DNA of 55,859 bases from IMG/VR virus record IMGVR_UViG_3300045988_036833, positions 1 through 55,859 of that record; one strand, written 5' to 3'. The notes below the pieces were generated by a model, which saw only the letters and a program-made list of their open reading frames with translations, did not search any database and was not told the origin of the DNA. The number at the start of each line of letters is the position of its first letter. Positions within the stretch are counted from its first letter, which is position 1. Origin of the DNA: a virus. The position numbers and the translations under genes were made by a program. Shown piece by piece: positions 56 through 55,465 of the stretch.

Positions 56-791
56 TGTGGCAATCACTTGCAACCCTGACCTTCGCCCCATCTTTTTTGA
101 TATTGCCGAAAGCGGATATGTCCGGTATCGGCTGCGTTATACGTCACGGATGAAATCACAGTATAGCATCCTGCTTTATTCGATTCTTCGGGACTGGATG
201 AACATGGACAACAAGCCGCATGAAATCAGTCTGAAAAAACTGAGAGAACAGCTCGGTGCGATGGAAGCGAGCTACGATGTTTACAAGAACCTTCGAAAAA
301 GAGTGCTTGACGTTGCAGTAGATGAGATCAATGCTGTGTCTGACATTGTGGTGACCTACGAACCGGTTCTTGTGGCACGAAAGGCTGTGGCAGTCAAGTT
401 CAAGCCCAAAATTAAAGCGTCTGAGACGCTGATTGAAGCTCAGGCAAGCGAAGTATCAACCGAACCTCAAAAAACCGCCAGAAAGCCCCGCAGAAGCGGA
501 TACGAGGATTTTGACTGGTCTGTGTGTGACGAACTGGAAAAGCAAGACTGCATTGACGTGGCAAAAGTGGTTGAGAAGTGGATGAAGAAAGAACATCCTG
601 AAATCAAGTTGCCGAGACGCAGAGAAGCGGTTTACGACACGGTAAAGGCCGCGTATAAGGACATATTATCTTTGGACAGGTCTCCGTTCCCGGACAGACC
701 TGTTGGCTATCTCATTAGAAGCGTAGACAAAGCGGGTGTCGTAGACAAGTATATGCCAGCGTTCTATTCCATTGAAGTCTTGCAAGAGTAG
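1..791 (+). CDS. rep: Rep_3/RepB-type plasmid replication initiator, C-terminal part (gene wraps the circular junction; N-terminal part at 55519..55859)
   Basis: In frame with 55519..55859 through the 55-nt overlap, 358 codons in total. The tracked ORF 57..791 is an internal GTG. KSQYSILLYSILRDW...LREQLG...YKNLRKRVLDVAVDEIN fits iteron-binding Rep_3 initiators. Iterons lie just upstream of the start. TAG stop at 789-791. Confidence 0.85.
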   Translation, partial: VLFTRAKLDYVPETRSYVVAITCNPDLRPIFFDIAESGYVRYRLRYTSRMKSQYSILLYSILRDWMNMDNKPHEISLKKLREQLGAMEASYDVYKNLRKRVLDVAVDEINAVSDIVVTYEPVLVARKAVAVKFKPKIKASETLIEAQASEVSTEPQKTARKPRRSGYEDFDWSVCDELEKQDCIDVAKVVEKWMKKEHPEIKLPRRREAVYDTVKAAYKDILSLDRSPFPDRPVGYLIRSVDKAGVVDKYMPAFYSIEVLQE

Positions 792-835
792 CCAGATACA
801 GCACATTGAGCAGATGATGCAGAAAGGAGAAAACG

Positions 836-997
836 ATGAACAAGGTTTATGTGGTTCTTGCGGGATGTATGGGCGATTTATCTATAGAGGGTATATTTTC
901 TTCCGAAGAAAAAGCAAAAGCATATATTTCTGAAATGATGAAAGACGCATATCAAGCAAGCACGAAACCCTATTTTGAAGAATGGGATGTGCAATAA
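836..997 (+). CDS. Small hypothetical protein (53 aa)
   Basis: Not in the ORF track (<60 aa). ATG preceded by AAAGGAGAAAACG. Fills the rep-parA gap. MNKVYVVLAGCMGDLSIEG...EEWDVQ, TAA stop. Confidence 0.45.
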   Translation: MNKVYVVLAGCMGDLSIEGIFSSEEKAKAYISEMMKDAYQASTKPYFEEWDVQ

Positions 998-1012
998 AGA
1001 AAGAGTGATAAA

Positions 1013-1777
1013 ATGGCAAAAATCATAGCGGTTGCCAACCAGAAGGGCGGCACAGGAAAGACCACCACAAGCACCTGTCTGGCTGGTGCGTTGCAGTTGC
1101 TTGGCAAGAAAGTCTTGCTGGTGGACTGCGATGCCCAGTGTAACGCAACGGACACCTATGGCGCACAGACAGAGGACGTATGCACCCTGTTCGATGTGAT
1201 GACCCGGCAAGGAACAGCAGAGGAAGGAATCCAGCACTGTGAAGCCGGTGACATTCTTCCGTCAGACAGCGCATTGAAGGACATTGACGAGCAACTTGTC
1301 CGGGACATTGGCAAGAACTTTCGGCTGCGAGAAGCCCTTGAAAGCGTATCTGAGCAGTATGATTACATTGTGCTGGACACTCCCCCGCAGCTTGGTCTTG
1401 CGCTTGTAAACGCTCTGATCGCCGCCAACAGCATTATCGTACCTATCACAGCAGACCGATATGCACTGGCTGGTTTGAGCCAACTTTCGCAGACCATCGG
1501 AGATGTTCGCAGATACTTCAACCAGACTTTGAAGATTGAAGGTCTGCTTCTGAACCAGTACAAGAGCCGGGAGAACCTGTCTAAAGAGGTCGTAGAGCAG
1601 CTCCCTGTGATTGCACAAAGCATGGGAACAAAGCTGCTTGACGTGAAGATTAGACCGTCTATGGGCGTCCGTAAGGCGCAGGCAGAGCGGCACAGCCTGT
1701 TTAGCGGTGATACGGCAAAGAGTACCAGCGCAGAGGACTTCAAGGCGTTGGCGGAGATGATTGTGGAGGGAAAATAA
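1013..1777 (+). CDS. parA: ParA/Soj-family partition ATPase
   Basis: Deviant Walker A at the N-terminus (AVANQKGGTGKTTT), then VLLVDCDAQCN and IVLDTPP. About 254 aa, typical of plasmid type I ParA. Confidence 0.93.
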   Translation: MAKIIAVANQKGGTGKTTTSTCLAGALQLLGKKVLLVDCDAQCNATDTYGAQTEDVCTLFDVMTRQGTAEEGIQHCEAGDILPSDSALKDIDEQLVRDIGKNFRLREALESVSEQYDYIVLDTPPQLGLALVNALIAANSIIVPITADRYALAGLSQLSQTIGDVRRYFNQTLKIEGLLLNQYKSRENLSKEVVEQLPVIAQSMGTKLLDVKIRPSMGVRKAQAERHSLFSGDTAKSTSAEDFKALAEMIVEGK

Positions 1778-1779
1778 AA

Positions 1780-1992
1780 TTGGCTAAAAAGAAAACTGAA
1801 AATGTTGTACGTCCAATTGCACATTGGGAACAAGTAAATTACAGCTATGTGGACTTAGACAACGGCGGCGTTCAGGTAAAAGTGGCCGGTATTGGTTGTT
1901 CAAACTGCATGGCGAAGTTTAGGAAAAATTTTATGTGGGCAATCAATTTCTGCCCTAATTGCGGAGCACGAATGGAGGCTGTAGAAGAATGA
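1780..1992 (+). CDS. Small Zn-ribbon protein (CxxC...CxxC) within the par operon
   Basis: TTG start 3 nt after the parA stop, GGAGGG upstream. GCSNC...CPNCG motifs. Its stop overlaps the next start (ATGA at 1989-1992). Confidence 0.55.
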   Translation: MAKKKTENVVRPIAHWEQVNYSYVDLDNGGVQVKVAGIGCSNCMAKFRKNFMWAINFCPNCGARMEAVEE

Positions 1993-2561
1993 AATCAACC
2001 AGCAAAAAATCATCTGGCTTGCTTGGCGGGTTTGATTTCCAGCCTATTTTTTCAGAACAGACATTAAGCCGAAGTGAGCCAAAGGAAGAAGAAGTAAGCC
2101 AAACAAAGCCGAATAATGCCGAACAAGCACCGATTAAGCCTAGTGAAGCCACAGACGGCCATGCACAGCCGAGTGAAGCAGAATTAAGCGATATTAAGCC
2201 GAAGCAAGCCAAAGACAGCGAAACACAGCCGAGCAATGCCGTAGTAGGCGAAAGTAAGCCAAAGAAGCTGAAACAGGCGAAAGAAGTGCAGTGTTTGATT
2301 GAACAGGGCAATGTTCTAGGCGCACTGGCTGAAGCTGGTTTGACAAAGAAAAAAATCCCGATGCCGGAATCGCATCAGGGTATTGCAAGCGGTGACGGCA
2401 AGCGTTCTAAGCGCATTACCATCCTTATGAGCGAGGAAGAACGCAAGTACATCAATCGTGAAGCCAGACGGCACGGAATGACGATTGGACAGTTCGTGTA
2501 CGCTCTAGCGGCTGCGGCGGCAGAGGGGAAGATTGAACTGGAGGATTTCTTAGATGAATGA
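1989..2561 (+). CDS. Ribbon-helix-helix (RHH) protein with long low-complexity linker; candidate ParG/ParR-like centromere-binding adaptor
   Basis: ATG at 1989 with GGAGG upstream and an ATGA overlap with the previous gene (the tracked ORF starts at 1959). C-terminal KRITILMSEEERKYINREARRHGMTIGQFV looks like an RHH/CopG fold. Its position after parA supports the adaptor role. Confidence 0.6.
   Translation: MKSTSKKSSGLLGGFDFQPIFSEQTLSRSEPKEEEVSQTKPNNAEQAPIKPSEATDGHAQPSEAELSDIKPKQAKDSETQPSNAVVGESKPKKLKQAKEVQCLIEQGNVLGALAEAGLTKKKIPMPESHQGIASGDGKRSKRITILMSEEERKYINREARRHGMTIGQFVYALAAAAAEGKIELEDFLDE
2061..2280. repeat. 22 consecutive 10-bp-phased decamers (consensus RAANNNAGCC) inside the RHH gene
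   Basis: AGCC sits at decamer positions 7-10 exactly in 11 units (ending 2070, 2080, 2100, 2110, 2140, 2150, 2170, 2200, 2210, 2230, 2260). Six more units have one mismatch. The motif is read in all three codon phases. Confidence 0.85.
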
Positions 2562-3435
2562 TAGTGAACGACACCTTATTCGATTTGTTTGCGATGGTGA
2601 TATGCGAAACGCGCAAAAAGCTGTTAAAATCATTTTGAATTCCATATCATCCCAAAAAGATAAGCAGTTCAAAGAAAATATGTTTCGCAAGCTAGAAAGC
2701 AAAAGAGAATTTATTGAATTGCCATATAACTTACAGCATCTTTTGATTGCAGAGGATACAGAAGAATTTCCAGAAGCAAGATTCCTTCTTAGGAACGAAG
2801 AAAAAAATATAACGCAGAAAATTGTTGCCATTTATCGAGCCTCTGAAAAATTGAATGAAATGGGCATCCCTTATTTGCCTGCATTGATGCTTTATGGGCA
2901 AAGCGGATGCGGAAAAACCATGCTGGCTAGGTATATCGCGCATAAAGCAAAACTTCCGTTTTTGAGGATTCAATTTTCAAATCTAGTTGATTCGCACTTA
3001 GGACAAACACAATCTAACCTTGCAAGAATTTTTGATTATGTGAGAACCGTTCCTTGCGTTCTTTGTTTTGATGAAATAGATGCGGTCGGAATGGCTCGTG
3101 GGCAAAAAGATGACGTTGGGGAAATGAACCGTGTGGTTATTGCGATTATGCAGGAAATGGATAGATTGCCGAACAATGTCATCATTATCGGAACGACAAA
3201 CCGATTTGATAGGATTGACCCTGCGCTTACAAGAAGATTTCCGTTGCAATACGAATTAAAGCCGTTGTGCCGTGAGGATGCAGAAATGCTTTCTAAAAGG
3301 TTCTTTGAATATGCAGGAGCACAATATGAAAACATAGCTTATGAAGATCATGTCCCCGCATCTACCGTTATTAAAGAATGTACAGAGCGAATTGTAAATC
3401 AAGTTCTGAATCAAGAAGATTTCTTGGAGGATTGA
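2554..3435 (+). CDS. AAA+ ATPase (classic AAA clade) with about 110-aa helical N-domain
   Basis: Walker A GQSGCGKT, Walker B VLCFDEID, sensor-1 IIGTTN, Arg-finger region DPALTRRF. GGAGGA RBS. Start overlaps the RHH gene stop (ATGAATGA). Confidence 0.9.
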   Translation: MNDSERHLIRFVCDGDMRNAQKAVKIILNSISSQKDKQFKENMFRKLESKREFIELPYNLQHLLIAEDTEEFPEARFLLRNEEKNITQKIVAIYRASEKLNEMGIPYLPALMLYGQSGCGKTMLARYIAHKAKLPFLRIQFSNLVDSHLGQTQSNLARIFDYVRTVPCVLCFDEIDAVGMARGQKDDVGEMNRVVIAIMQEMDRLPNNVIIIGTTNRFDRIDPALTRRFPLQYELKPLCREDAEMLSKRFFEYAGAQYENIAYEDHVPASTVIKECTERIVNQVLNQEDFLED

Positions 3436-3438
3436 CGT

Positions 3439-4032
3439 ATGATTACTTACAGACCTCATCGTGGTTCTTTGGAAGATGCCATGAAAGAAGCAAAAACTTT
3501 TCTGAACGAATGGCAAATGAAACGGTATGTTGCAAATAACTGGAATCTTGCAATCGGAAGAAAAGTATTAGACCCCGAAGATATTATTATCGACAGCGAA
3601 TCAACAGACGATGACCGTGTCGGTTGGAAAAATGTTCACATGGTTTGCGCAAACAAGCTGAACGGAGAGGACTATGTAGAAAAATACGGATGCCCGCAGT
3701 GTATTGGCTATTGTGCATACAATAGTGAATGCAAAGAGGAACGGGAAGTAGAGGATTGGCAAATGATGAGATCGAAGGAATTTTACGAAGGAAGCATTAG
3801 CCGTTTACAGAAAATGGTTAAGCGTGGCATTTACGTTCTTTTGTTCGATGCCTTTGCTGTAGCAGTTCAGATTCCGTTTATCTTTGCTGGAAAATGGGTT
3901 GCAACGCACGTGATTTTGTCCATTGCAGTATCTTTTGCAGCGGGATTTAGTTTTAACACGCTTGTGGATAGCAAAAGACAACTTGATATGTACAAGGCAG
4001 ATATGGAATTGTACTATACCAAAGAAAAATAA
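3439..4032 (+). CDS. Membrane protein: soluble Cys-containing N-domain plus two C-terminal TM helices
   Basis: GGAGGA RBS, starts 3 nt after the AAA+ stop. CPQCIGYC motif. Hydrophobic stretches GIYVLLFDAFAVAVQIPFIF and VILSIAVSFAAGFSF. Confidence 0.75.
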   Translation: MITYRPHRGSLEDAMKEAKTFLNEWQMKRYVANNWNLAIGRKVLDPEDIIIDSESTDDDRVGWKNVHMVCANKLNGEDYVEKYGCPQCIGYCAYNSECKEEREVEDWQMMRSKEFYEGSISRLQKMVKRGIYVLLFDAFAVAVQIPFIFAGKWVATHVILSIAVSFAAGFSFNTLVDSKRQLDMYKADMELYYTKEK

Positions 4033-5980: not shown

Positions 5981-6017
5981 AAAAAATCAGGGGCAGAGGT
6001 GTCTTACCCCTGCCCCG
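5981..6017 (-). terminator. Intrinsic terminator (partial) after the 290-aa gene
   Basis: On the - strand: GGGGCAG...CTGCCCC stem followed by TGATTTTTT. Confidence 0.55.
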
Positions 6018-6051
6018 ATGGTTCACCCGGCGTTATCGGGGAGTGTGTAGG

Positions 6052-6924
6052 TTAGCAGCAGCCGCAGCAGTTCACGCCCACGTTGGGGTTTGCCACCTGA
6101 TAAGCGGGAATCGGACGAGGATTGACCCGGTTCAGGATGGTATCAGTCTGCTGAGACATCACGGTGGTCAGAAGCGCATTCTGACGATCCTGAGAAGCCG
6201 CGAACTTCAAGCTCTGGTTCTCAGCGGTCAGAGTGGCAATCTTATCCTGTGTGAAGTAGTCCATCATGCTGCGGAAGTTGGCGTTGCAGTTGTCCACGAT
6301 GGCACGAGCGTTGTCTGCGATAGCCTGACGGGTAGCGCAGTCCTCCGTTGCGATGGTGTACTTCAGGTCGCCGATCAGCTGCTTGTTCTCGCAGCAGCAA
6401 GATGCCAGCTGCGTGGCAAGTGCGGTCTGACCCGCCTGACGTGCGTTGCCCTCCTGCATGATGGCAAGGCTGATGGCGTTGTCGCCGTTGGACACGCTGC
6501 GTTCCAGACCGTTCACCAGCTGCGCGTTCTGGTAGCCGAGCTGACAGATCGCCTGATTAGTACCAGCAAAGCCGCCCGCAACGGCAGCGTTGAGAGTGTT
6601 CATCTGTGCGAGCTGGTCATAGCCCAGAGAGCAGATACCGCTCTGGATGCCAGCCAGGGAACGGGAAGTGTCCTGCTGGTAGAATCCCTCCGACAAAGCC
6701 GCACGAGTATCTGCGCCGCCCTGACCGGTTGCACCGGTGCCCACCAGATAGGGGATGTAGCTGTTCATGCCGTTGTCACCACCGTTCCGGCCGTAGCCGT
6801 TTGTACCCCAGCCGAAGATGATGGCGAGGATAATAACCGCCCACAGACCTTCGTTGCCGAAGAATCCGCCGTTGTTATTGCCGCCGTCCTGCCCAGCCAG
6901 ATAGCCAGTTGCAAAATCGTCCAT
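6052..6924 (-). CDS. Membrane-anchored protein (290 aa) with G/N-rich N-terminus, one TM helix, CCC and terminal CCGCC motifs
   Basis: AAAGGAG RBS. LWAVIILAIIFGWG as the TM helix. Internal ASCCCENK. C-terminus NVGVNCCGCC. Confidence 0.75.
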   Translation of the reverse strand: MDDFATGYLAGQDGGNNNGGFFGNEGLWAVIILAIIFGWGTNGYGRNGGDNGMNSYIPYLVGTGATGQGGADTRAALSEGFYQQDTSRSLAGIQSGICSLGYDQLAQMNTLNAAVAGGFAGTNQAICQLGYQNAQLVNGLERSVSNGDNAISLAIMQEGNARQAGQTALATQLASCCCENKQLIGDLKYTIATEDCATRQAIADNARAIVDNCNANFRSMMDYFTQDKIATLTAENQSLKFAASQDRQNALLTTVMSQQTDTILNRVNPRPIPAYQVANPNVGVNCCGCC

Positions 6925-7046
6925 AACAAAACTCCTTTCAGTTTTGCGTTATGCTATCCCACCGCCGTGTGCGATGGGCGAAGCCAAACAAAAGCGGTTT
7001 TTATCAAGTCCGCAAAACTGAGAAGCGTTTCGCTTAGAGGGATGCT

Positions 7047-7300: not shown

Positions 7301-7819
7301 TTATTCTCCTTTCTTCGCAGCGGCAGCGGGCTTAGAAAAGCTCTTCTGCCACTTTTCCAGTTCATCCAGCCTGTGGACGAGGGCGTTATACTCTTCAATG
7401 GGCACATACTGCTGTGTCGGTGCAGCGGTCTGCTGTGCCTGTTGCGCTTGCATCTGCCGCCACGCTTCCGGGCTGTAAAACTCCTGCACATAGGATTCGC
7501 AGGTGTCAGGGTTCAGCCGCTTGCAGTAGATCACGCCGCTCCGCAGGTCGGGACAGTAGGTCGGTCTGCCATACAGGTCAGACGGTATCGCCAAAAATTC
7601 CTCCCTGCTGGAAACAGGTCTACCAAGCAACCAGCCGCCTTCCTGCGCCGACTGCTGAACAGGCTGCTGCCCATTCATCGGCTGCGGACGCTGCGGTTGT
7701 GCCTGTTGCATCTGCGTGTTGGGCAGGGGAGTGGCAAGCCCTACCGTGCCCATACCGCCGTAAGGATTGACAGGCTGCTGCGGAACATAGGGCGTTCCGG
7801 GTGTCTGGTAATAGCTCAT
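7301..7819 (-). CDS. Q/P-rich hypothetical protein (172 aa)
   Basis: AAGGAGGGA RBS. N-terminal half is a low-complexity P/Q tract. First gene after a long leader. Confidence 0.7.
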   Translation of the reverse strand: MSYYQTPGTPYVPQQPVNPYGGMGTVGLATPLPNTQMQQAQPQRPQPMNGQQPVQQSAQEGGWLLGRPVSSREEFLAIPSDLYGRPTYCPDLRSGVIYCKRLNPDTCESYVQEFYSPEAWRQMQAQQAQQTAAPTQQYVPIEEYNALVHRLDELEKWQKSFSKPAAAAKKGE

Positions 7820-10294: not shown

Positions 10295-11902
10295 TTAACC
10301 TGTATATTTTGATGGATATTCTGTATCGCTTGTTATGATCCCCCCTCGAATGACTGCTGTATCATATTTGCTTCCATAACTTTCGCAATTATACAAATAC
10401 ATTTCGGAATTACTTGTCCAATAATTTGACATTCTGTCTGGGTAATTAGCGTCTGTAATAGTAGAGATGCCGCTCGAACATCCATAATTAGCAGATTTAC
10501 AATCCTTATCTGCAACAACTCCACCGTGGCAAGCATAATATTTCCCATTGAGCCGAACAATGTAAGAACCATCATGTGATGTGGTAGCGTTAGAAGATTG
10601 CCCGGCATCTGATGTTAGGTATGAAGAACCATTATTATACGATTCGCAATTTACTTCAAGAGTATGATTTACAATATTGTTGTTGGCATGATAATTTAGT
10701 CCATCAAACGCATTATTATATGCCTTACAACCAATTACATAGGAAGTTCCGCCCAAAATACTTAGCCCATTTGAATTTTCTGCCATGTCAGAACCAGAAA
10801 ATATACATTTAAAAAGCGCAATTACTTTGTTTTCGGAAAGTACCGCTTTCAAAGTATTATATCCATGTAAAAACTGAAGAGATTCAATATAGCAAGAGTT
10901 TTTTATGCAAATCGGAGCATTCTTTTCGCCTATTCCATTGTCAATTACAACATTCCCAAGTCCAATTATGTTAATACTTTTTTCAATTTCTTCACCAGCT
11001 ATAAAATTCTCACCGGATTTATAGACACCCTCAGCCATCAATAGTGTTTGAATGTTTTTAACAGACAAAGCCCCTGCTATAGTTTTTTTAGGCGTCCTTA
11101 TACTTAATCCATCATTTTCATCATCTCCATCGGGAGACAAAAACACATTTATTCCGTCTTTCTTGTTTATGAAGCAATTTTTTACATTAAAATCCGTATA
11201 ATATCCATTGTTATCCTTGTAAATAGTTGCTTTAATTTTATCTTCATCAAACGGAAGAGCAATTGTTTCTCGTTTATTAGCCACGTTTAATTGCTCACCA
11301 ATATTGTCGTATTGTATCAATGATACATTGCTCATTTCAGAAACGTTCATATCCGATTCATCTATTTTTTTTAGCATAAATGCTGCATAAACGTCCCTGT
11401 CGTATTCAATCTTATAGTCATCACTTCTATATTTAAAGTCGAGCAATGCCACTCCACCGATTGAGTCAAAAAGCTGCAAAGCATACACGTATCCATCCTT
11501 AACGGTTACAAGGTATTTTTTACCAGCTTTAAGCAGAAAAGCTTCTGCATAAGAAGTAATTTTATTGATTGTTCTCAATCTGTTTTTAACATCTATATAT
11601 TCTATTGCCGCGACATAAGATCCTTTATTTACGGCAATTCCTCCCATATATGCCGGCAGATCTTCTTTCTTATATATTCCTATGTCTTCTAAATCTTCCT
11701 TTAGCGCACCAACCGCATCACCAGTAGCTTTTGCATCCGCAGCCTTGCCGGAGAGGGAGAGGGTGGGGTCGATGATATTATCGACAACGGCTTTCGTTTC
11801 GTTGGCGGCAGATTCGACCTCCACAATGCCGTTCTCGATGTGGTTCAGCTGCGGAGCGGTAAGTACTTCGCCGTTTGCAAAGTTTTGCTTTTGATAGCTC
11901 AT
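10295..11902 (-). CDS. Tail fibre / receptor-binding protein with beta-helix (pectate-lyase-like) C-terminal region
   Basis: N-terminal FANGEVLTAPQLNHIENGI is typical of fibre anchors. The C-terminal part has repeated N/G-rich rungs (NAFDGLNYHANNNIVNH..., GGVVADKDC). Sharp drop in GC below about 11690. Confidence 0.75.
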   Translation of the reverse strand: MSYQKQNFANGEVLTAPQLNHIENGIVEVESAANETKAVVDNIIDPTLSLSGKAADAKATGDAVGALKEDLEDIGIYKKEDLPAYMGGIAVNKGSYVAAIEYIDVKNRLRTINKITSYAEAFLLKAGKKYLVTVKDGYVYALQLFDSIGGVALLDFKYRSDDYKIEYDRDVYAAFMLKKIDESDMNVSEMSNVSLIQYDNIGEQLNVANKRETIALPFDEDKIKATIYKDNNGYYTDFNVKNCFINKKDGINVFLSPDGDDENDGLSIRTPKKTIAGALSVKNIQTLLMAEGVYKSGENFIAGEEIEKSINIIGLGNVVIDNGIGEKNAPICIKNSCYIESLQFLHGYNTLKAVLSENKVIALFKCIFSGSDMAENSNGLSILGGTSYVIGCKAYNNAFDGLNYHANNNIVNHTLEVNCESYNNGSSYLTSDAGQSSNATTSHDGSYIVRLNGKYYACHGGVVADKDCKSANYGCSSGISTITDANYPDRMSNYWTSNSEMYLYNCESYGSKYDTAVIRGGIITSDTEYPSKYTG

Positions 11903-26613: not shown

Positions 26614-26691
26614 TGGTGCTGCATAATGGATTTGAACCAATGTATGTCCGGTTATGAGCCGGATGCTCTAGCCTAACTGAGCTAATGCAAC
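26614..26691 (-). tRNA. tRNA with CAT anticodon (Met, or Ile2 if lysidine-modified), CCA encoded
   Basis: Hand-folded cloverleaf GTTGCAT-TA-GCTC-AGTTAGGCTA-GAGC-A-TCCGG-CTCATAA-CCGGA-CATAC-ATTGG-TTCAAAT-CCATT-ATGCAGC-ACCA. U33 and A37 present. One T.T mismatch in the T stem. Confidence 0.85.
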
Positions 26692-48443: not shown

Positions 48444-49046
48444 TTAGCCCTCCTTCGGCTGTTTCTGAGCACAGTCCCAACACAGGACGCGCCCAAAGCG
48501 TTTCTTCGTGCTTCTTGCAGTTTCCAGCGGAGTGACTGTGCGGTTGTTGTACTGAATAGGCTGCAACTGCTTTCCGCAGCAAGCGCATGGGGGGATGGTT
48601 TCCGCTTCCATTTGCTTCTGCGCAGGCTTGTTTGACCTGCTTGTGGTCTGTTTCTGGTACTCGTCCGTGTCAGCGTCCTTTGTATCGTCAATGCAAAACA
48701 AACCGTTCAGAGCGTACTTTCTGGCGTAGCTGCTTGCAGTGCCGGTAAGTTGGGAATCTGACATACCAGATTGCTGCTTTGGCTCTCTGGCGTATGCCGT
48801 GTTAGATATTTTGTCTCCGGTCTCCGAATCGTAGATTGTTGCAGTCGCTTTGATATAGTGGTACTCGCCACTCTGTACAGGCTCGTCTTCAAGAACAAGA
48901 CAGGCTCCGTATTTCGCAAGGAGGGGTTTTACTGCTTCCAGAATGTCTTCGCAACTGCGGTAATTGTACTTACCAAAAGAATTGCGCTGGCTTTTTGGGG
49001 CTTTCAGCTCGCCTTGAATTTTGGAAAGCTTCACAAGTGTTTCCAT
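48444..49046 (-). CDS. erf: Erf-family single-strand annealing protein
   Basis: ATG at 49046 after AAGGAGAAAT. NYRSCEDILEAVKPLL and TGTASSYARKYALNGLFCIDD blocks. C-terminal Zn-ribbon. Confidence 0.85.
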   Translation of the reverse strand: METLVKLSKIQGELKAPKSQRNSFGKYNYRSCEDILEAVKPLLAKYGACLVLEDEPVQSGEYHYIKATATIYDSETGDKISNTAYAREPKQQSGMSDSQLTGTASSYARKYALNGLFCIDDTKDADTDEYQKQTTSRSNKPAQKQMEAETIPPCACCGKQLQPIQYNNRTVTPLETARSTKKRFGRVLCWDCAQKQPKEG

Positions 49047-49494
49047 ATTTCTCCTTCCATAAAGCATCTTTTGCTTTCTTAGCTTCTTCTATGGTCTTGA
49101 ATCGGTATGTTTTTCCGCTAAAGTGGAACGAATATCTGCGTTTCAAACCTTTCGTTGAACGGTCTTCGTAGATTCCGTACTCGCCAGTTAAAGCGTTTCT
49201 GGCCTGAACAGTATTTGCAACATTATCAGCTTGGGTTACGCAGCGAAGATTCTCAATCCTGTTGTCTGTCCTGATTCCATTGATATGATCGATTACTCCA
49301 ATAGGCATTAGCCCATAATGAAGTGCGTACACAAGGCGGTGTGCTTTGTATTGTTTTCCTTTGATTTTTACAATCAAATAACCGTCTTTATCGTAGCTTC
49401 CTGCACTGTTTTTCCTGTCTTTTCTGTGTAGCGTACCGCCAGAATCAACATAAAACCATTTGCAAAGATACTCGACAAGTTCCTTATCGGTCAT
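48970..49494 (-). CDS. HNH homing-type endonuclease
   Basis: HRLVYALHYG...IDHINGIRTDNRIENLRCVTQADN (HNH_3-type). AT-rich. Its 3' end overlaps the erf start by about 75 nt. Confidence 0.85.
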   Translation of the reverse strand: MTDKELVEYLCKWFYVDSGGTLHRKDRKNSAGSYDKDGYLIVKIKGKQYKAHRLVYALHYGLMPIGVIDHINGIRTDNRIENLRCVTQADNVANTVQARNALTGEYGIYEDRSTKGLKRRYSFHFSGKTYRFKTIEEAKKAKDALWKEKYGNTCEAFQNSRRAESPKKPAQFFW

Positions 49495-49566
49495 GGAATC
49501 GTCCTCCTTTCTTCGGCTTCATTAGGCTTCATTATTAATACTTTGGCTTAATATGGCTGTAAAAAA

Positions 49567-49761
49567 TCAACTAGCCATCAGTTTTGCCAGTTGTGCACGG
49601 AGATCTTTCAGCTCCGCTTCCCTGTCCTCAATTTCAGACTGCAAGTCCTCAATCTCAGCCAGCCGGTCAGCTTCTTTTGCTTCTGCCATCTGTTCGTTGG
49701 TCATAAAGTACACGCCGTCCTCCGGCTCGGTTACACCACCGAATCTATCAAGGTTAATCAT
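49567..49761 (-). CDS. Small acidic coiled-coil protein (64 aa)
   Basis: ATG at 49761 after AGAGGGAG (the tracked ORF starts at 49926). Confidence 0.5.
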   Translation of the reverse strand: MINLDRFGGVTEPEDGVYFMTNEQMAEAKEADRLAEIEDLQSEIEDREAELKDLRAQLAKLMAS

Positions 49762-49948
49762 CTTTTGGTCTCCCTCTCTTGCGTTCCTCTTTGATTTGCA
49801 GCGCGCTGTACCACTGGTCTTTGTCAATTTCGATGGTAGACCACCGATGGTTACAGGCAATGCACTTCTTGCGGCGAACGATGCTATCGTGGTCAGACCG
49901 GCTATCAACCGTTGTAATGTTGCCACTGCCGCACATTGGGCATTTCAT
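49754..49948 (-). CDS. NrdR-like Zn-ribbon protein (64 aa)
   Basis: ATG at 49948. MKCPMCGSGNITTVDSRSDHDSIVRRKKCIACNHRWSTIE mirrors the NrdR N-terminal Zn-ribbon. No ATP-cone domain. Confidence 0.6.
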   Translation of the reverse strand: MKCPMCGSGNITTVDSRSDHDSIVRRKKCIACNHRWSTIEIDKDQWYSALQIKEERKRGRPKDD

Positions 49949-51160: not shown

Positions 51161-51392
51161 TTGCCTTTCTTAAGGCTCTTTCATTGTGTTCAGAAAAACA
51201 CTGGTCAAGAAACTGGATGAACTTTGCGATTTTCTCTGCATCTTCCGGCGTACAGCCATTTTCAACGAAGCGCCTTGCCGATTGTTCACGCTTGAAATCC
51301 GAGTAGGCCTTGGCCGCAGCGTCGATGGCAAACTTGGCTTCTTCCGGGTATTCAAGATCTACCTTTAAGGTGATAATCTGTTCCATGTTCAT
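51141..51392 (-). CDS. Hypothetical protein (83 aa)
   Basis: Overlaps both neighbours. Acidic and helical. Confidence 0.55.
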   Translation of the reverse strand: MNMEQIITLKVDLEYPEEAKFAIDAAAKAYSDFKREQSARRFVENGCTPEDAEKIAKFIQFLDQCFSEHNERALRKASELDGD

Positions 51393-52141
51393 CCCTCCGC
51401 TTTCTGGTTCTTCTCCGTCTTTAAGAAGAGATTAACGAAATAGACCTGACCGATACCCGTAACCTTAGGGGTCTTATTGATAGAAGTGTGCCCATCGGAA
51501 TGCGCAATGGATGTTTCCTTGATTTCAAACAAGCGAAGTTCCATAGACTTCTGGGTCGGCATATTGTAGTCTGTCCGCTTCTTGTCTTTAATCAGGTATC
51601 CGTTCTCACGCATCCACTGGAACAGGCGGTTCTGCCCCATCTGGATGCCGTTCTGCGACAGCAGCTTTGCCATCTCACCAACAAGAATGCTTTGGTTGCT
51701 TGCGCTCACAGCGTCAGCGAAAAGCGCTTTCGGCTTCATGGTTTCAATCTGCTTGTCCTTCTCTTCCAGCTCTTCGTGCGCTGCGATCAGCGCAGTTGCA
51801 AGGAGCTGCGAGCGGGTAATCTTCGGCTGTTCAGCCAGCTTCTTCTCCATTTCGTTGAACGCTGCAATGTACTTGAGCTTCCACTCAAGAGCAGCCTTTC
51901 CGGTAAACCCCATAGCCAGCAGGGTAAAACCATCACGGTTCATCAGGTAAGCCCTCTGTTCCCTGCCGTAGCTGTCCGGCACGGTGGTTTCAAAGAACAT
52001 CTCCCCAAAATTGGGGACATCTTTTTTGATTGCATCGATGTCACGCATCACATGATCGTGACGCTTTTCAAAGTTCTCGGCAATCTGGCGGCTAGATGCT
52101 ACCGGTTCGCCGCTTTGCATGGATAGCACGATTTCTCTCAT
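51389..52141 (-). CDS. Rha-family phage regulatory protein with KilA-C/ANT C-terminal domain (antirepressor)
   Basis: VASSRQIAENFEKRHDHVMRDI...YLMNRDGFTLLAMGFTG is Rha-type. C-terminal VGEMAKLLSQNGIQMGQNRLFQWMRENGYL is KilAC-type. Confidence 0.85.
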   Translation of the reverse strand: MREIVLSMQSGEPVASSRQIAENFEKRHDHVMRDIDAIKKDVPNFGEMFFETTVPDSYGREQRAYLMNRDGFTLLAMGFTGKAALEWKLKYIAAFNEMEKKLAEQPKITRSQLLATALIAAHEELEEKDKQIETMKPKALFADAVSASNQSILVGEMAKLLSQNGIQMGQNRLFQWMRENGYLIKDKKRTDYNMPTQKSMELRLFEIKETSIAHSDGHTSINKTPKVTGIGQVYFVNLFLKTEKNQKAEG

Positions 52142-52335: not shown

Positions 52336-52429
52336 ATTTTTTCTCCTTTCTTGTTCTAATACTTGAACTTTTTGAAAGAATGTGATAATATTATGGTGTC
52401 AAGCAAAAACATTATCGAACGTTCTTCTA

Positions 52430-52533
52430 TTTGTTCAAAGCTTTTAATTTGTTCTACCGATTGAACTCGGTATCTTTATTAAAGCACAAGTAGTAGAACT
52501 TTTCAAGTGTTTTTGTTCAAGTGGTAGAACTTT
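52430..52533. promoter_or_regulatory. Operator-type repeats in the divergent control region
   Basis: TTTGTTC at 52430, 52448 and 52512. GTAGAACTTT at 52494 and 52524, with an inverted GTTCTAC at 52451. Confidence 0.5.
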
Positions 52534-52565
52534 GTCATCTTGTACAAGCACTGGAGGTAAGTTTT

Positions 52566-52901
52566 GTGTTTTTTGACAATTTCGTAAAACTATGCGAAGA
52601 AAAGGGAGTAAAGCCGTCTCGTGCTTTAACCGATGCAGGCGTTCCAAGATCTGCTTATAGCTATTGGAGAAGGGAAGCTGGCATCGGGAACGATGCAAAG
52701 CCGACAAACCAAAACGCCGTAAAGCTTGCTCAGTACTTTGACGTTACTGTGGATTACCTTCTCACTGGCGAACAAAAAGAAAACCCGCCCCAGCAGCCGC
52801 AAAGTGAAGTCGATGCAGCATTGGAGCGGATTAGAAAAAAGCTTGAATCTATGCCAAAGGAACAGCGTGAAGCGCTGATGAACCTGATCGAGAAGATGTG
52901 A
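52566..52901 (+). CDS. XRE-family HTH transcriptional regulator (repressor candidate)
   Basis: GTG at 52566, 8 nt after GGAGG (the tracked ORF starts at 52521). FDNFVKLCEEKGVKPSRALTDAGVPRSAYSYW...LAQYFDVTVDYLLTGE. Confidence 0.8.
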   Translation: MFFDNFVKLCEEKGVKPSRALTDAGVPRSAYSYWRREAGIGNDAKPTNQNAVKLAQYFDVTVDYLLTGEQKENPPQQPQSEVDAALERIRKKLESMPKEQREALMNLIEKM

Positions 52902-54954: not shown

Positions 54955-55043
54955 TTGTCGAATTATCGCAGTTTTTGAAGAACATTTTGTCCACGTTCAT
55001 CCACTTTTTGTACACCTATCGGGCAAATTTGCCTTGTCATTCC

Positions 55044-55145
55044 GTCCCCCATAGGCTGTAAATCGACAGCATTCGCGCGAAATAAATAACGAGTTATCGT
55101 AAATCTATTGTTTGCAATTGAGTAGCTCGTCAATCCGTCCCCCAT
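55044..55145 (-). repeat. Two distal inverted copies of the rep iteron core
   Basis: TCCGTCCCCCATA occurs at 55041-55053 and 55134-55146. It is the complement of ATGGGGGAC. Confidence 0.7.
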
Positions 55146-55354
55146 AACACCGGCTCAAAAGTTTTTCATTCACTTTTTGTACACGTTAGATAATACTAAT
55201 TGCTTCCGGTTTGTCATTATTCAGCAAATGGAAGGTTGAGTTATCCACAAGCTGGAATGGAAAAACAAAGAAATTGTTGAAAATTATCGTCATCGCCTAT
55301 TTAACGATGATATTTAACCTCTTGTTTATTTCTTGTTTAATATATAATATGTAT

Positions 55355-55465
55355 ATGGGGGACGAAATGACAAAGCATGGGGGACGTTTTGACAAGTCAC
55401 GGGGGACAAAATGACGAGGACATGGGGGACAAAAAGACAAGTCATGGGGGACAAAAATTGTTGAC
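55355..55465 (+). repeat. oriV iterons: five direct about 22-bp repeats (ATGGGGGACnnnnTGACAAG)
   Basis: Cores start at 55355, 55377, 55399 (ACGGGGGAC), 55422 and 55444, spaced 22-23 bp. An AT-rich stretch lies at 55290-55350 immediately upstream. Confidence 0.88.

Follow-up and report, generated by a model that had tools for sequence, protein, structure and literature searches.

A helically phased decamer array within the gene of a predicted RHH adaptor, a candidate centromere and/or operator of a gut phage

Introduction

Downstream of parA in this viral genome lies a small gene in which 220 bp consist of decamers in unbroken succession. What is a repeat with a period of one helical turn doing inside a protein-coding sequence? 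To our knowledge, the centromeres of ParA/RHH systems have so far been described as non-coding arrays beside the par operon. We analysed the locus within its whole stretch of 55,859 nt (the window) and among related viral contigs. Our main reading, to which we give a probability of roughly 55%, is that the 220 bp are a type Ib-like centromere and/or operator, consisting of tandem candidate sites for the RHH adaptor placed in the codons of the adaptor's own linker. This reading draws on sequence comparison and on structure models.

Results

Genomic context of the adaptor gene

The features of the rep and parA region are the following.

57..791, + strand: 3' part of a Rep3-family replication initiator gene (Rep3_N, Rep3_C), cut by the window start
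1013..1777, + strand: parA, Walker-type partition ATPase of 254 aa with no N-terminal DNA-binding extension
1989..2561, + strand: adaptor gene, 190 aa, with an N-terminal conserved peptide, a repeat linker, a short helical segment and a predicted C-terminal RHH domain
1989..2045 (coding), + strand: conserved N-terminal peptide MKSTSKKSSGLLGGFDFQP, in which M1, K2, S5 and G10 are invariant across eight lineages
2061..2280, + strand: in-gene array of 22 contiguous decamers, consensus RAANNAAGCC, with AGCC at positions 7-10
2403..2558 (coding), + strand: predicted RHH domain, approximately residues 139-190, with the strand KRITILM and helices at 149-161 and 166-178

The Rep3 initiator has full-length homologues in L001 and L002. 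The parA product matches AAA_31 (E=7e-54), also CbiA, ParA and MipZ, and the PHROG family of ParA-like partition proteins (E=4e-58). Between parA and the adaptor gene the window has a 70-aa zinc-ribbon ORF on the same strand with overlapping stop and start codons; the start codon of the adaptor overlaps the stop of this upstream ORF (ATGA). The position downstream of parA, pointed out in an earlier note on this DNA, is the same in all lineages in which the contig extends far enough upstream. The adaptor gene directly follows parA in L083, L158, L159, L160, L162, L165, L166 and L167, and one small ORF lies between them in L154.

Sequence and structure prediction support the gene product as a candidate centromere-binding adaptor of type Ib. 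The locus has a small Walker ParA, its length within the range of about 200-260 aa of this type, an adaptor gene downstream of it and a predicted RHH fold. A candidate array upstream of parA, where type Ib systems typically have their centromere or operator, is missing for the AAGCC motif in the window, while the sister lineages L154 and L159 have one of their own motif.

The adaptor was found on more than 500 viral contigs, mostly of about 56-60 kb. Its homologues number 815 (protein clusters), and nearly all of the 120 listed are 190 aa long. A plasmid database search with positions 800-3500 gave no match, and the phage database matches were unannotated faecal contigs only. The source is a gut phage that probably persists as a plasmid.

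Predicted structure of the adaptor

In the AlphaFold2 monomer model, residues 1-90 have no secondary structure and a pLDDT from below 50 to about 50, so this part is predicted to be disordered. The linker contains a 10-residue repeat, xxSxxKPxxA, rich in Ser, Lys-Pro and Ala. Linkers vary freely in length and sequence between the eight adaptor lineages, which share only the RHH domain and the N-terminal peptide MKxTSKKxSGLL. This peptide is presumed to be the tail that contacts ParA, by analogy with the tails of ParG and ParB (PMC5393062).

The helix pair 149-161 and 166-178 is modelled with a pLDDT of 80-92. The best Foldseek matches are all RHH proteins, namely CopG-DNA (1ea4, TM 0.83-0.85, probability 0.97), TacA, Arc, AmrZ and NikA, with E-values that are weak (0.6 and above) because the RHH domain is small. 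The RHH-like C-terminus that had been read from the letters alone is thus also what the model and the structure search predict. At sequence level, the Pfam NikA-like RHH family (PF21983) matches with E=2e-5 and 24.9 bits, under the cut-off of 27 bits, and a search against solved structures gave a marginal CopG-family match only (E=0.45). A NikA-like relaxosome accessory protein was considered as well and does not fit; the Pfam match is under threshold, and the adjoining genes code for Rep3, ParA and an AAA ATPase, no relaxase being seen close by.

An antisense ORF over the array (1955-2311) is not conserved, as L002 has no ORF of at least 60 aa there, and we treat it as a by-product of the purine-rich sequence.

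The decamer array and its statistics

The array codes for residues 25-97 of the adaptor, within the disordered linker. AGCC is found exactly at decamer positions 7-10 in 11 of the 22 units (starting at 2067, 2077, 2097, 2107, 2137, 2147, 2167, 2197, 2207, 2227 and 2257, all congruent modulo 10), and six further units have it with one mismatch (2111 TGCC, 2151 GGCC, 2171 AGCA, 2181 AGCG, 2211 AGCG and 2231 TGCC). Our recount therefore agrees with the earlier note in the number of decamers and of exact and near-exact motifs. The motif is read in turn as AGC-C (Ser), xAG-CCx (Lys/Glu/Gln-Pro) and xxA-GCC (Ala); the claim that all three codon phases are used holds in the frame of ORF 1989-2561.

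On average the window has 5.5 copies of AGCC per kb. Stretches of 220 bp with at least six copies are very rare (about 240 of the 55,640 possible starts), and the in-gene array has the most, 12. The pair AGCCN6AGCC has eight matches in the window against 1.8 expected, a number reached by none of 100 shuffles; four of these matches are in the in-gene array and two in a second small array described below. A PWM scan for arrays of five units gives the in-gene array a score of 50, compared with a shuffle maximum of 9. In the Fourier spectrum, a check that the earlier note had proposed, the power at period 10 peaks at the array with 5.86, the highest value of the whole window (median 0.72). The power at period 5 is higher still (10.6), because each decamer resembles two xAAGx halves.

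The units are about 60-70% alike, which does not agree with a recent 30-bp duplication of near-identical units, the origin that would have spoken against a DNA signal. TRF also reports a 60-bp period. We looked for the near-identical units and the copy-number variation of a hypervariable coding tandem repeat (slippage or contingency locus) and found neither: all 83 homologous genes are 573 nt long, share the decamer phase and have 10-14 in-phase AGCC each. With its 10-bp period and its position 1.3 kb downstream of rep, the array is not affiliated with the iterons of the Rep3 origin.

Constraint on the DNA beyond protein coding

When the same peptide was recoded by synonymous-codon resampling (5000 resamplings), in-phase AGCC was found 4.9 times on average and at most 10 times, compared with 11 observed. 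The period-10 power of the resampled sequences had a mean of 2.0 and a maximum of 4.4, compared with 5.86 observed.

Population data lead to the same result. Among 78 unique homologous genes, 88-100% identical, diversity in the array follows the place within the decamer more closely than the place within the codon. For synonymous sites, decamer position 1 excluded, it is 0.079 in the array versus 0.199 outside, which is 2.5-fold lower (Mann-Whitney p=3e-6). Decamer position 1 alone varies freely, with a fourfold-site diversity of 0.315; as a control, parA has 0.149 at twofold and 0.259 at fourfold sites. The synonymous sites, proposed beforehand as a place to look, are hence under a constraint that differs with decamer position, and a DNA-level constraint acts on the in-gene array. 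In the RHH-coding segment, the diversity by codon position is 0.018, 0.001 and 0.218, the mark of a strongly constrained protein segment.

Other arrays and repeats in the window

The earlier note had seen no other repeat array near parA, which does not hold: a CAGA array and 22-bp iterons are both present. A second AAGCC array, farther away, was absent from that note.

49505..49560, - strand: non-coding mini-array of the same decamers, acAGCC ATATTAAGCC AAAGTATTAA TAATGAAGCC TAATGAAGCC GAAGAAAGGA
793..828, + strand: CAGA array of four 9-bp-phased units, CAGATACAG CACATTGAG CAGATGATG CAGAAAGGA
55354..55456, + strand: 22-bp iterons, 4.6 copies, with inverted copies at 55030-55053 and 55126-55146

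The mini-array is flanked by the stop codon of ORF 49567-49926 on one side and by the ribosome-binding site for the HNH/Erf genes on the other; it has four AGCC units over six decamers. Its PWM score of 33 (at 49554, - strand; shuffle maximum 9) makes it the only other high-scoring place in 55.9 kb. Of 69 relatives whose sequence reaches far enough upstream, 65 keep it, at 6.5-10 kb from the in-gene array (about 8.4 kb here) and on the far side of the origin/rep/par region relative to it. Its diversity is 0.09, compared with 0.24-0.44 in the flanks. The per-position diversities of the two arrays show a weak correlation that is not significant (rho 0.30).

The CAGA array is situated after the rep stop codon, ahead of the DUF7336-parA run, and matches the in-gene 9-mer array of an alternative (P0127-type) adaptor allele. 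Among relatives it has 2-5 copies and is missing in some, including some that keep the window-type gene, and it was rejected as the sole centromere of the window-type adaptor. The 22-bp iterons are the probable Rep3 origin; in the phage L083, a different Rep comes with different 21/43-bp repeats. Another peak at period 10, at about 52360-52600, is due to a different motif (GTTCTAC / GTAGAAC) unrelated to the decamers, in the regulatory region from which an antirepressor-like gene and an HTH gene diverge.

The in-gene array is thus not the sole candidate site. The same PWM scan of 55.9 kb found no AAGCC array upstream of parA, and its absence from the canonical type Ib position in the window lineage is an observation that counts against an in-gene centromere.

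Motifs of the diverged adaptor lineages

Phasing of the linker-coding DNA at 10/20 bp was found in six of eight lineage representatives. The best autocorrelation lags are 10/20/30/40 bp in the window, P0132, P0137, P0136, P0142 and P0143, and for these six the autocorrelation was judged beyond the synonymous-resampling null. P0158 and P0153 have the same lags by autocorrelation alone, without the resampling null. Different lineages share spacings that are multiples of 10 bp and fall in all three codon phases.

Every well-sampled lineage uses a motif of its own and has a second array of it, located upstream of parA in two lineages and in the low-complexity region of another gene in one group. 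In L154, which has the P0132 adaptor, seven decamers of the type AGNGGWAGTC fill the rep-parA intergenic region; in L159, CACTTTG occurs three times with 10-bp spacing upstream of parA; and in L165, which has the P0158 adaptor, and L167, YACAGCRGAA decamers are found inside the other gene's low-complexity region. When the motifs were cross-scanned between lineages, cognate scores were 23-33 and non-cognate scores 7-18. The motifs of in-gene and external arrays thus covary across lineages. For P0132, a search for relatives in viral contigs found none.

A simple rule linking RHH strand residues to the motif was tried and rejected: the strand RITIIM of the P0137 group is nearly that of the window, RITILM, and the two go with unlike motifs.

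The alternative P0127-type allele is found in L083 and L149-L153 on the same phage backbone, in L083 adjoining a near-identical ParA. It carries 9-bp units, which form an in-frame repeat, so that this period can be explained by a protein repeat too. The AGCC gene array is missing from this sister allele, with a 5-unit remnant in two of four phages, and its absence on a shared backbone is likewise a point against a centromere kept within the gene. The P0127-type phages retain the AAGCC mini-array despite their different adaptor allele. Since both phage types keep both external arrays, these arrays do not discriminate between the alleles.

The resampling, the synonymous constraint, the conserved non-coding copy and the recurrence in diverged lineages all bear out the original suggestion that the period is a DNA-level signal.

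Discussion

Proposed mechanism

Linkage and covariation point to the RHH protein as the likely binder of the array. The array would offer about 22 sites, one per helical turn and each with an AAGCC core, to the presumably dimeric RHH domain for which the last part of the same gene codes. RHH dimers may load side by side on successive decamers, as pCXC100 ParB does on nine unspaced 9-bp repeats or the omega protein of pSM19035 on 7-bp heptads. We infer that such binding would be cooperative and would serve partition, with the long disordered linker and the conserved N-terminal peptide of each bound dimer offered to ParA on the nucleoid. The in-gene array would then be the main centromere (parS) of a plasmid-like prophage and the 5-6-unit non-coding copy about 8.4 kb away a second site, and array binding may regulate transcription too. 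The sites could be accommodated in the gene because the DNA codes for an unstructured, sequence-tolerant linker, and the protein repeat xxSxxKPxxA would simply result from translation of the DNA motif in three frames. That a family of gut phage-plasmid adaptors carries its centromere in its own gene, with the linker repeat as by-product and smaller satellite arrays in intergenic DNA or in low-complexity codons of a different gene, is a wider claim, which we make tentatively and hold to be quite possible.

Alternative explanations

In type Ib systems, the RHH proteins that bind the centromere also act as repressors, as known for ParG and omega. The array might therefore bind the RHH protein as an operator or silencer and not as a centromere, with segregation through another site or none. 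We consider this unlikely, though worth serious attention. It could take the form of roadblock autoregulation within the adaptor's own operon, or of control of the early recombination/replication operon (HNH, Erf, SSB) by the mini-array. The external arrays always occupy the gap from a stop codon to the ribosome-binding site of the genes that follow, and in related phages a Bro-N protein with the same RHH domain suggests a regulatory use of the sites. However, no sigma-70-like promoter overlaps the in-gene array or the mini-array, 22 units are far above the needs of an operator, and the conserved position next to ParA together with the N-terminal tail points to partition. Operator and centromere are also not exclusive roles.

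It is improbable that the decamers are read by another DNA-binding protein of phage or host, by an RNA-binding factor or as a translation signal. Strict 10-bp helical phasing is a property of duplex DNA, and it recurs across lineages in three codon phases. The motif also changes with the adaptor lineage in L154, L159 and L165/L167. An Rfam scan of the window found one tRNA elsewhere and nothing at the array, and the RNA fold there is no better than that of shuffles (z=-0.26). Such a reader would agree with the sense orientation of both arrays to local transcription in the window lineage, with external arrays that abut ribosome-binding sites, and with the AAGCC mini-array kept in P0127-type phages beside another adaptor allele.

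A low-complexity linker shaped at the protein level only, grown from old 30-bp duplications of a unit with three similar decamers, is very improbable and is contradicted by the synonymous and non-coding-copy results. The predicted disorder of the encoded region, the free variation of length and sequence among lineages, the 60-bp period and the in-frame 9-bp repeat of the P0127 allele are all what such a linker would give. Yet resampling fails to reproduce the signal, synonymous sites are constrained, the same decamers form a conserved non-coding array, and diverged lineages have 10-bp phasing with different motifs that match their external arrays. The units are also far from near-identical and hence not recently duplicated.

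Finally, it is very improbable too that the arrays are recombination or boundary sequences, or passive gene-conversion copies, at the module junctions of a mosaic phage genome, with no dedicated protein to bind them. Such a role would suit the variable gene content beside the external arrays (HNH in some genomes and not in others; small genes of various kinds after rep) and the swap of the adaptor gene within or beside the array in L083 and L149. However, boundary sequences need neither helical phasing nor 22 units, the array length is invariant and purifying selection inside the units is position-specific.

Comparison with known systems

The candidate centromere and/or operator can be compared with several partition systems. 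In pCXC100, unspaced 9-bp direct repeats are bound cooperatively by an RHH ParB (PMC3074162). As predicted here, a small Walker ParA is followed by an RHH centromere-binding protein with a C-terminal binding domain and a flexible N-terminal part, and, as here, short non-palindromic units run head to tail without interruption (9 bp there, 10 bp here and 9 bp in the P0127 allele). Beyond the RHH fold there is no detectable sequence similarity, and the sites here are candidates from sequence. The pCXC100 centromere is non-coding, whereas here a 22-unit array is inside the adaptor coding sequence and a small second one about 8.4 kb off.

In the delta/omega system of pSM19035, three promoter regions carry parS in the form of 7-10 contiguous 7-bp heptads (PMC9499535, PMC3074150), and at least four contiguous repeats are required (PMC9499535). 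The mini-array has four AGCC in six decamers and the gene array runs of two to three exact AGCC. Both replicons combine a Firmicute-type small ParA and an RHH protein, predicted as such here, with several arrays, and the pSM19035 protein doubles as a regulator. Its heptads are in mixed orientation and in promoters, while here the 10-bp repeats are direct, no promoter was found and the largest array is coding DNA.

The parH site of TP228 ParF/ParG has degenerate 4-bp boxes with 4-bp AT-rich spacers over about 100 bp (PMC3130281). It shares with the present array a conserved core of 4-5 bp, variable spacer bases and a long degenerate layout. Disordered N-terminal tails of centromere-binding proteins activate ParA, and the TP228 RHH protein has such a tail, which activates the ATPase (PMC5393062); the N-terminal part of the adaptor is predicted to be disordered as well. 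The TP228 site differs in its 8-bp period and in its position upstream of parF. ParG has 76 aa, and the linker here is about 100 residues longer, with codons that carry the array.

In the type II ParR-parC systems of R1 and pSK41, the RHH protein ParR binds 11-bp or 20-bp tandem iterons in a superhelical complex. These iterons are also near one helical turn, and the binding of RHH dimers there is a plausible model for the geometry here; the motor is, however, the actin-like ParM and parC is non-coding, whereas the neighbour here is a Walker ParA. A centromere element within the gene of its binding protein is known from Bacillus subtilis, where the parS within spo0J is a single 16-bp palindrome bound by a spreading HTH ParB. 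It differs in that no tandem, helically phased array shapes the amino acids of a linker.

Implications

The literature searched offered no example of a binding protein whose own coding sequence contains its tandem-repeat centromere. If the siting of an RHH-type centromere array inside the gene is confirmed, it would mean that compact mobile genomes can conceal an extended cis-acting site among the codons for a disordered linker. The same bases would then have a dual use, as segregation site and as protein linker, and adaptor and site would travel as one cassette that recombination does not separate. Each adaptor lineage is predicted to bind its own decamer. Some low-complexity repeats in proteins would mirror signals in the DNA, which matters for genome annotation and for the interpretation of synonymous-site constraint. 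Given its presence on more than 500 viral contigs and in 815 protein clusters, the adaptor probably has a part in how common phage-plasmids of the human gut are carried.

The adaptor gene and its setting

A run of 22 back-to-back decamers (the gene array) spans 2061-2280, within the ORF 1989-2561 (+) that encodes a 190-aa candidate ParA partner, here called the adaptor. The adaptor ATG overlaps the stop codon of a 70-aa zinc-ribbon ORF, itself downstream of parA. The window also holds tailed-phage genes (large terminase, portal, major head protein, tape measure and tail proteins) which, together with the following features, make a phage-plasmid most likely:

57-791, Rep3 initiator, cut by the window start
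1013-1777, small ParA
55354-55456 (+), direct repeats of 22 bp in four to five copies (ATGGGGGACAAAATGACAAGTC), shortly before the end of the window
55030-55053 and 55126-55146, inverted copies of the 22-bp repeat, ~200-300 bp upstream of the direct repeats

On the circular map the 22-bp repeats presumably lie upstream of the Rep3 gene and are probably origin iterons. L083, a related locus with a different Rep, has different 21/43-bp repeats at the corresponding place. A tRNA gene (26617-26691, -; Rfam, 59.7 bits) was found inside the structural/packaging region. An AAA+ ATPase gene (2554-3435, +) overlaps the adaptor stop codon; many relatives keep it behind the adaptor, while it is split in the related locus L001 and missing from others.

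Three parts of the adaptor are conserved: an N-terminal peptide (MKSTSKKSSGLLGGFDFQP), a predicted disordered region reaching residue 90, and a pair of short helices leading into a C-terminal strand-helix-helix. For this last domain, the top structural matches are without exception ribbon-helix-helix (RHH) proteins, led by CopG on DNA (TM 0.83-0.85) and followed by TacA, Arc, AmrZ and NikA. Sequence matches are weak, with a NikA-like Pfam hit under the Pfam threshold and a CopG-family hit in the PDB (E=0.45). Human-gut viromes contain the family in abundance, with 513 viral contigs and 815 protein clusters, and scans of genome contigs found no isolate genome carrying it. Some window-type phages additionally encode a 309-aa Bro-N + RHH fusion (6001-6930 in both L163 and L164) whose RHH strand is that of the adaptor (KRSKRITILMS), and which could target the same decamers.

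Periodicity of the gene array

Exact AGCC occupies decamer positions 7-10 in 11 of the 22 units and six more carry it with one mismatch, which reproduces the tally in an earlier note made from the sequence alone.

Exact in-phase AGCC, starts: 2067, 2077, 2097, 2107, 2137, 2147, 2167, 2197, 2207, 2227, 2257
One-mismatch AGCC units, same phase: 2111, 2151, 2171, 2181, 2211, 2231

The mean AGCC density of the window is 5.5 per kb; six or more AGCC per 220 bp are very rare, and the top value, 12, falls on the gene array. AGCCN6AGCC was observed 8 times against 1.8 expected, a count attained in 0 of 100 shuffles. The Fourier comparison suggested in the earlier note places the period-10 maximum of the 55.9-kb window on the gene array (5.86; median 0.72). 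Period-5 power is higher there (10.6), because every decamer looks like two xAAGx halves.

The second-highest period-10 signal of the window lies at 52340-52560, an AT-rich divergent regulatory region with repeated motifs of the GTTCTAC / GTAGAAC type, flanked by an antirepressor-like gene (51389-52141, -) and an HTH gene (52521-52901, +). These are probably immunity switch operators.

Codon choice and synonymous constraint

Four independent lines, namely codon choice, population constraint, a non-coding copy and recurrence with covariation, point to DNA as the origin of the period, as the earlier note had proposed. The same four contradict a purely protein-level repeat: the linker does repeat as xxSxxKPxxA, but this arises because AGCC is read in three frames.

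With the peptide fixed and codons redrawn by the window's codon usage (5000 trials), in-phase AGCC averaged 4.9 with a maximum of 10, compared with 11 observed, and period-10 power averaged 2.0 with a maximum of 4.4, compared with 5.86.

Constraint was measured in 83 homologous genes from viral contigs; every one is 573 nt long, 78 are unique, and identity ranges from 88 to 100%. Diversity at the three codon positions, in order, is 0.018 / 0.001 / 0.218 across the RHH part, the pattern expected of a constrained protein, and 0.076 / 0.056 / 0.121 in the gene array. Diversity in the array instead goes by decamer position, with 0.22 at position 1, 0.14 at position 3 and ~0.04 at positions 2, 6, 8 and 9. 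Synonymous positions in the homologues are indeed conserved: at strictly synonymous sites the array without decamer position 1 has a diversity of 0.079, compared with 0.199 elsewhere in the gene (Mann-Whitney p=3e-6). At decamer position 1 the fourfold sites, which are third bases of Pro codons, vary no less freely than sites elsewhere (0.315). In parA of the same genomes, twofold sites have a diversity of 0.149 and fourfold sites 0.259. Neither the phase of the array nor the gene length varies among homologues, which rules out a slipping tandem repeat.

Decamers 1-5 (2061-2110) are near-invariant across the 78 unique genes, including fourfold-degenerate sites (CGA, CCA, GTA), and are more constrained than the remaining array. 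This stretch may be a nucleation site.

A non-coding mini-array

Scanning both strands for 5-unit arrays with a PWM derived from the 22 decamers gave just two high-scoring places, the gene array (50) and 49554 (-) (33); the next natural site scored 15 and the best shuffle 9. The second place is a mini-array of AAGCC decamers:

49505-49560 (-), acAGCC ATATTAAGCC AAAGTATTAA TAATGAAGCC TAATGAAGCC GAAGAAAGGA, with a ribosome-binding site at its end

It takes up the 72 bp that separate ORF 49567-49926 from an HNH gene, which is followed by Erf and SSB genes, and lies on the strand opposite to the gene array, ~8.4 kb off across the immunity/origin/rep/par region. Among 69 relatives whose upstream sequence extends for 9 kb or more, 65 have it, 6.5-10 kb from the gene array, and the scan detected no further high-scoring arrays in these loci. 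Relatives keep it despite different flanking genes; its diversity is 0.09 versus 0.24-0.44 in the flanks, and changes cluster in bases 1-3 of each unit.

The HNH-endonuclease-like gene just downstream (48970-49494, -) is present in only ~60 viral contigs, and relatives lacking it have Erf-like or other small genes directly after the mini-array, which thus borders a variable gene slot.

Recurrence in diverged lineages

Distant adaptor homologues are few, and what they have in common is limited to the N-terminal peptide and the RHH; the gene comes after ParA wherever the contig covers the upstream region. Autocorrelation of linker-coding DNA was tested against a synonymous-resampling null, and best lags of 10/20/30/40 bp exceeded it in the six lineages tabulated. 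Two further homologues, P0158 and P0153, likewise have top lags of 10-40 bp in raw autocorrelation.

Best autocorrelation lag of linker-coding DNA (adaptor or homologue, lag in bp, z)
window, 10, 5.8
P0132, 10, 5.5
P0137, 10, 4.1
P0136, 20, 3.3
P0142, 10, 2.5
P0143, 20, 2.3

Linker motifs of related loci
L154: AGNGGWAGTC, 12 units
L158, L165, L167: YACAGCRGAA
L159: CACTTTG...GCAGAA
L160: CAGGAAG

In all well-sampled lineages the lineage's own motif recurs in a second array. In L154 the whole stretch between rep and parA, where type Ib sites canonically lie, is taken up by seven decamers, which are also the top repeat family of an independent repeat finder. L159 has 3x CACTTTG at 10-bp spacing upstream of parA. 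In L165 and L167, 5-6 decamers (xACAGCxxxx) lie on the other strand, among the codons for the Gln/Pro-rich N-terminus of a 171-174-aa product of a conserved gene:

L165 5320-5380 (-), external decamers
L167 5600-5660 (-), external decamers

The window homologue of this gene (7301-7819, -) has no such array. In these P0137-group phages the external decamers encode QPNTAQYSAG, which is also found in the adaptor linker of the same phage. In a PWM cross-scan, the PWM of each lineage picked out an external array in its own locus (23-33) but none in non-cognate loci (7-18), the exceptions being related pairs.

Upstream of parA in L166, a gene for an HTH_36 initiator-like protein contains perfect 15-bp tandem repeats (CCGGGAAGCGGAAAA; 2846-2965) that encode (REAEN) ~8 times. 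Their GGAAG core also occurs in CAGGAAG, the adaptor-linker motif of this lineage.

The P0127 allele and the CAGA array

A rare sister allele, P0127 (43% identical), is found at the equivalent position of the same phage backbone in L083-L087 and L149-L153, and in L083 adjoins a near-identical ParA. Its linker consists of ~twelve 9-bp units (CAGANNNNN); 9 bp being a multiple of three, this period cannot separate a DNA-level from a protein-level cause. In two of four P0127-type phages this allele is followed by a remnant of the window-type gene, which has lost its 5' part and retains only the last five decamers:

L083 4898-5218 = L149 ~10859-11215, C-terminal 106-119 residues, RHH included

The remnant is evidence of an apparent recent allele replacement, in which the cut would have passed through the array.

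P0127-type phages retain the AAGCC mini-array and also have, directly behind the rep stop codon, a non-coding array of CAGA units with 9-bp phasing, whose 9-mers are the same as the units of their adaptor linker. It is present in most window-type phages too (2-5 units among relatives) and missing from some, where parA comes straight after rep. Its copy in the window contradicts the earlier note's statement that no other repeat array is near parA:

793-828 (+), CAGA array, between the rep stop and the ribosome-binding site of the next gene

Since both allele types have both external arrays, these give no indication of which site is read by which of the two adaptors.

Proposed role and comparison with known systems

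The best-supported reading is that the gene array comprises tandem candidate sites, spaced by one helical turn, to which the RHH dimer encoded by the same gene would bind. It is possible that RHH binding serves regulation only; adaptor binding to the decamers could also regulate transcription, and this role is not exclusive of partition. A binder other than the adaptor, or a role at the RNA level, is less likely because the phasing is helical, the motif follows the adaptor lineage, and the array gave no RNA structure or RNA family match. Recombination boundary sequences would leave the phasing, unit number and position-specific selection unexplained.

By comparison of features, most of which it shares, the window system would work like type Ib ParA/RHH systems. 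It differs in the type Ib position of the centromere, upstream of parA, where no AAGCC array was found in the window lineage. What is new is the location: the candidate array lies within the coding sequence of its own presumed binder and would shape the disordered linker of this protein. One lineage has a satellite array within the low-complexity codons of another gene. The searchable literature yielded no description of an array embedded in the codons of the protein that binds it; the parS site within spo0J consists of one palindrome, read by an HTH ParB.

ParA activation by pSM19035 omega takes at least 4 contiguous heptads (PMC9499535), and the array recognised by TP228 ParG, ~100 bp long, contains degenerate 4-bp boxes (PMC3130281). 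In centromere-binding proteins of this kind the disordered N-terminal region touches ParA and raises ATP hydrolysis (PMC5393062). If the decamers are adaptor sites, adaptors would form a filament along the gene array, with the mini-array adding to partition as well. The filament would display many N-terminal tails to nucleoid-bound ParA, so that the plasmid prophage would be partitioned.
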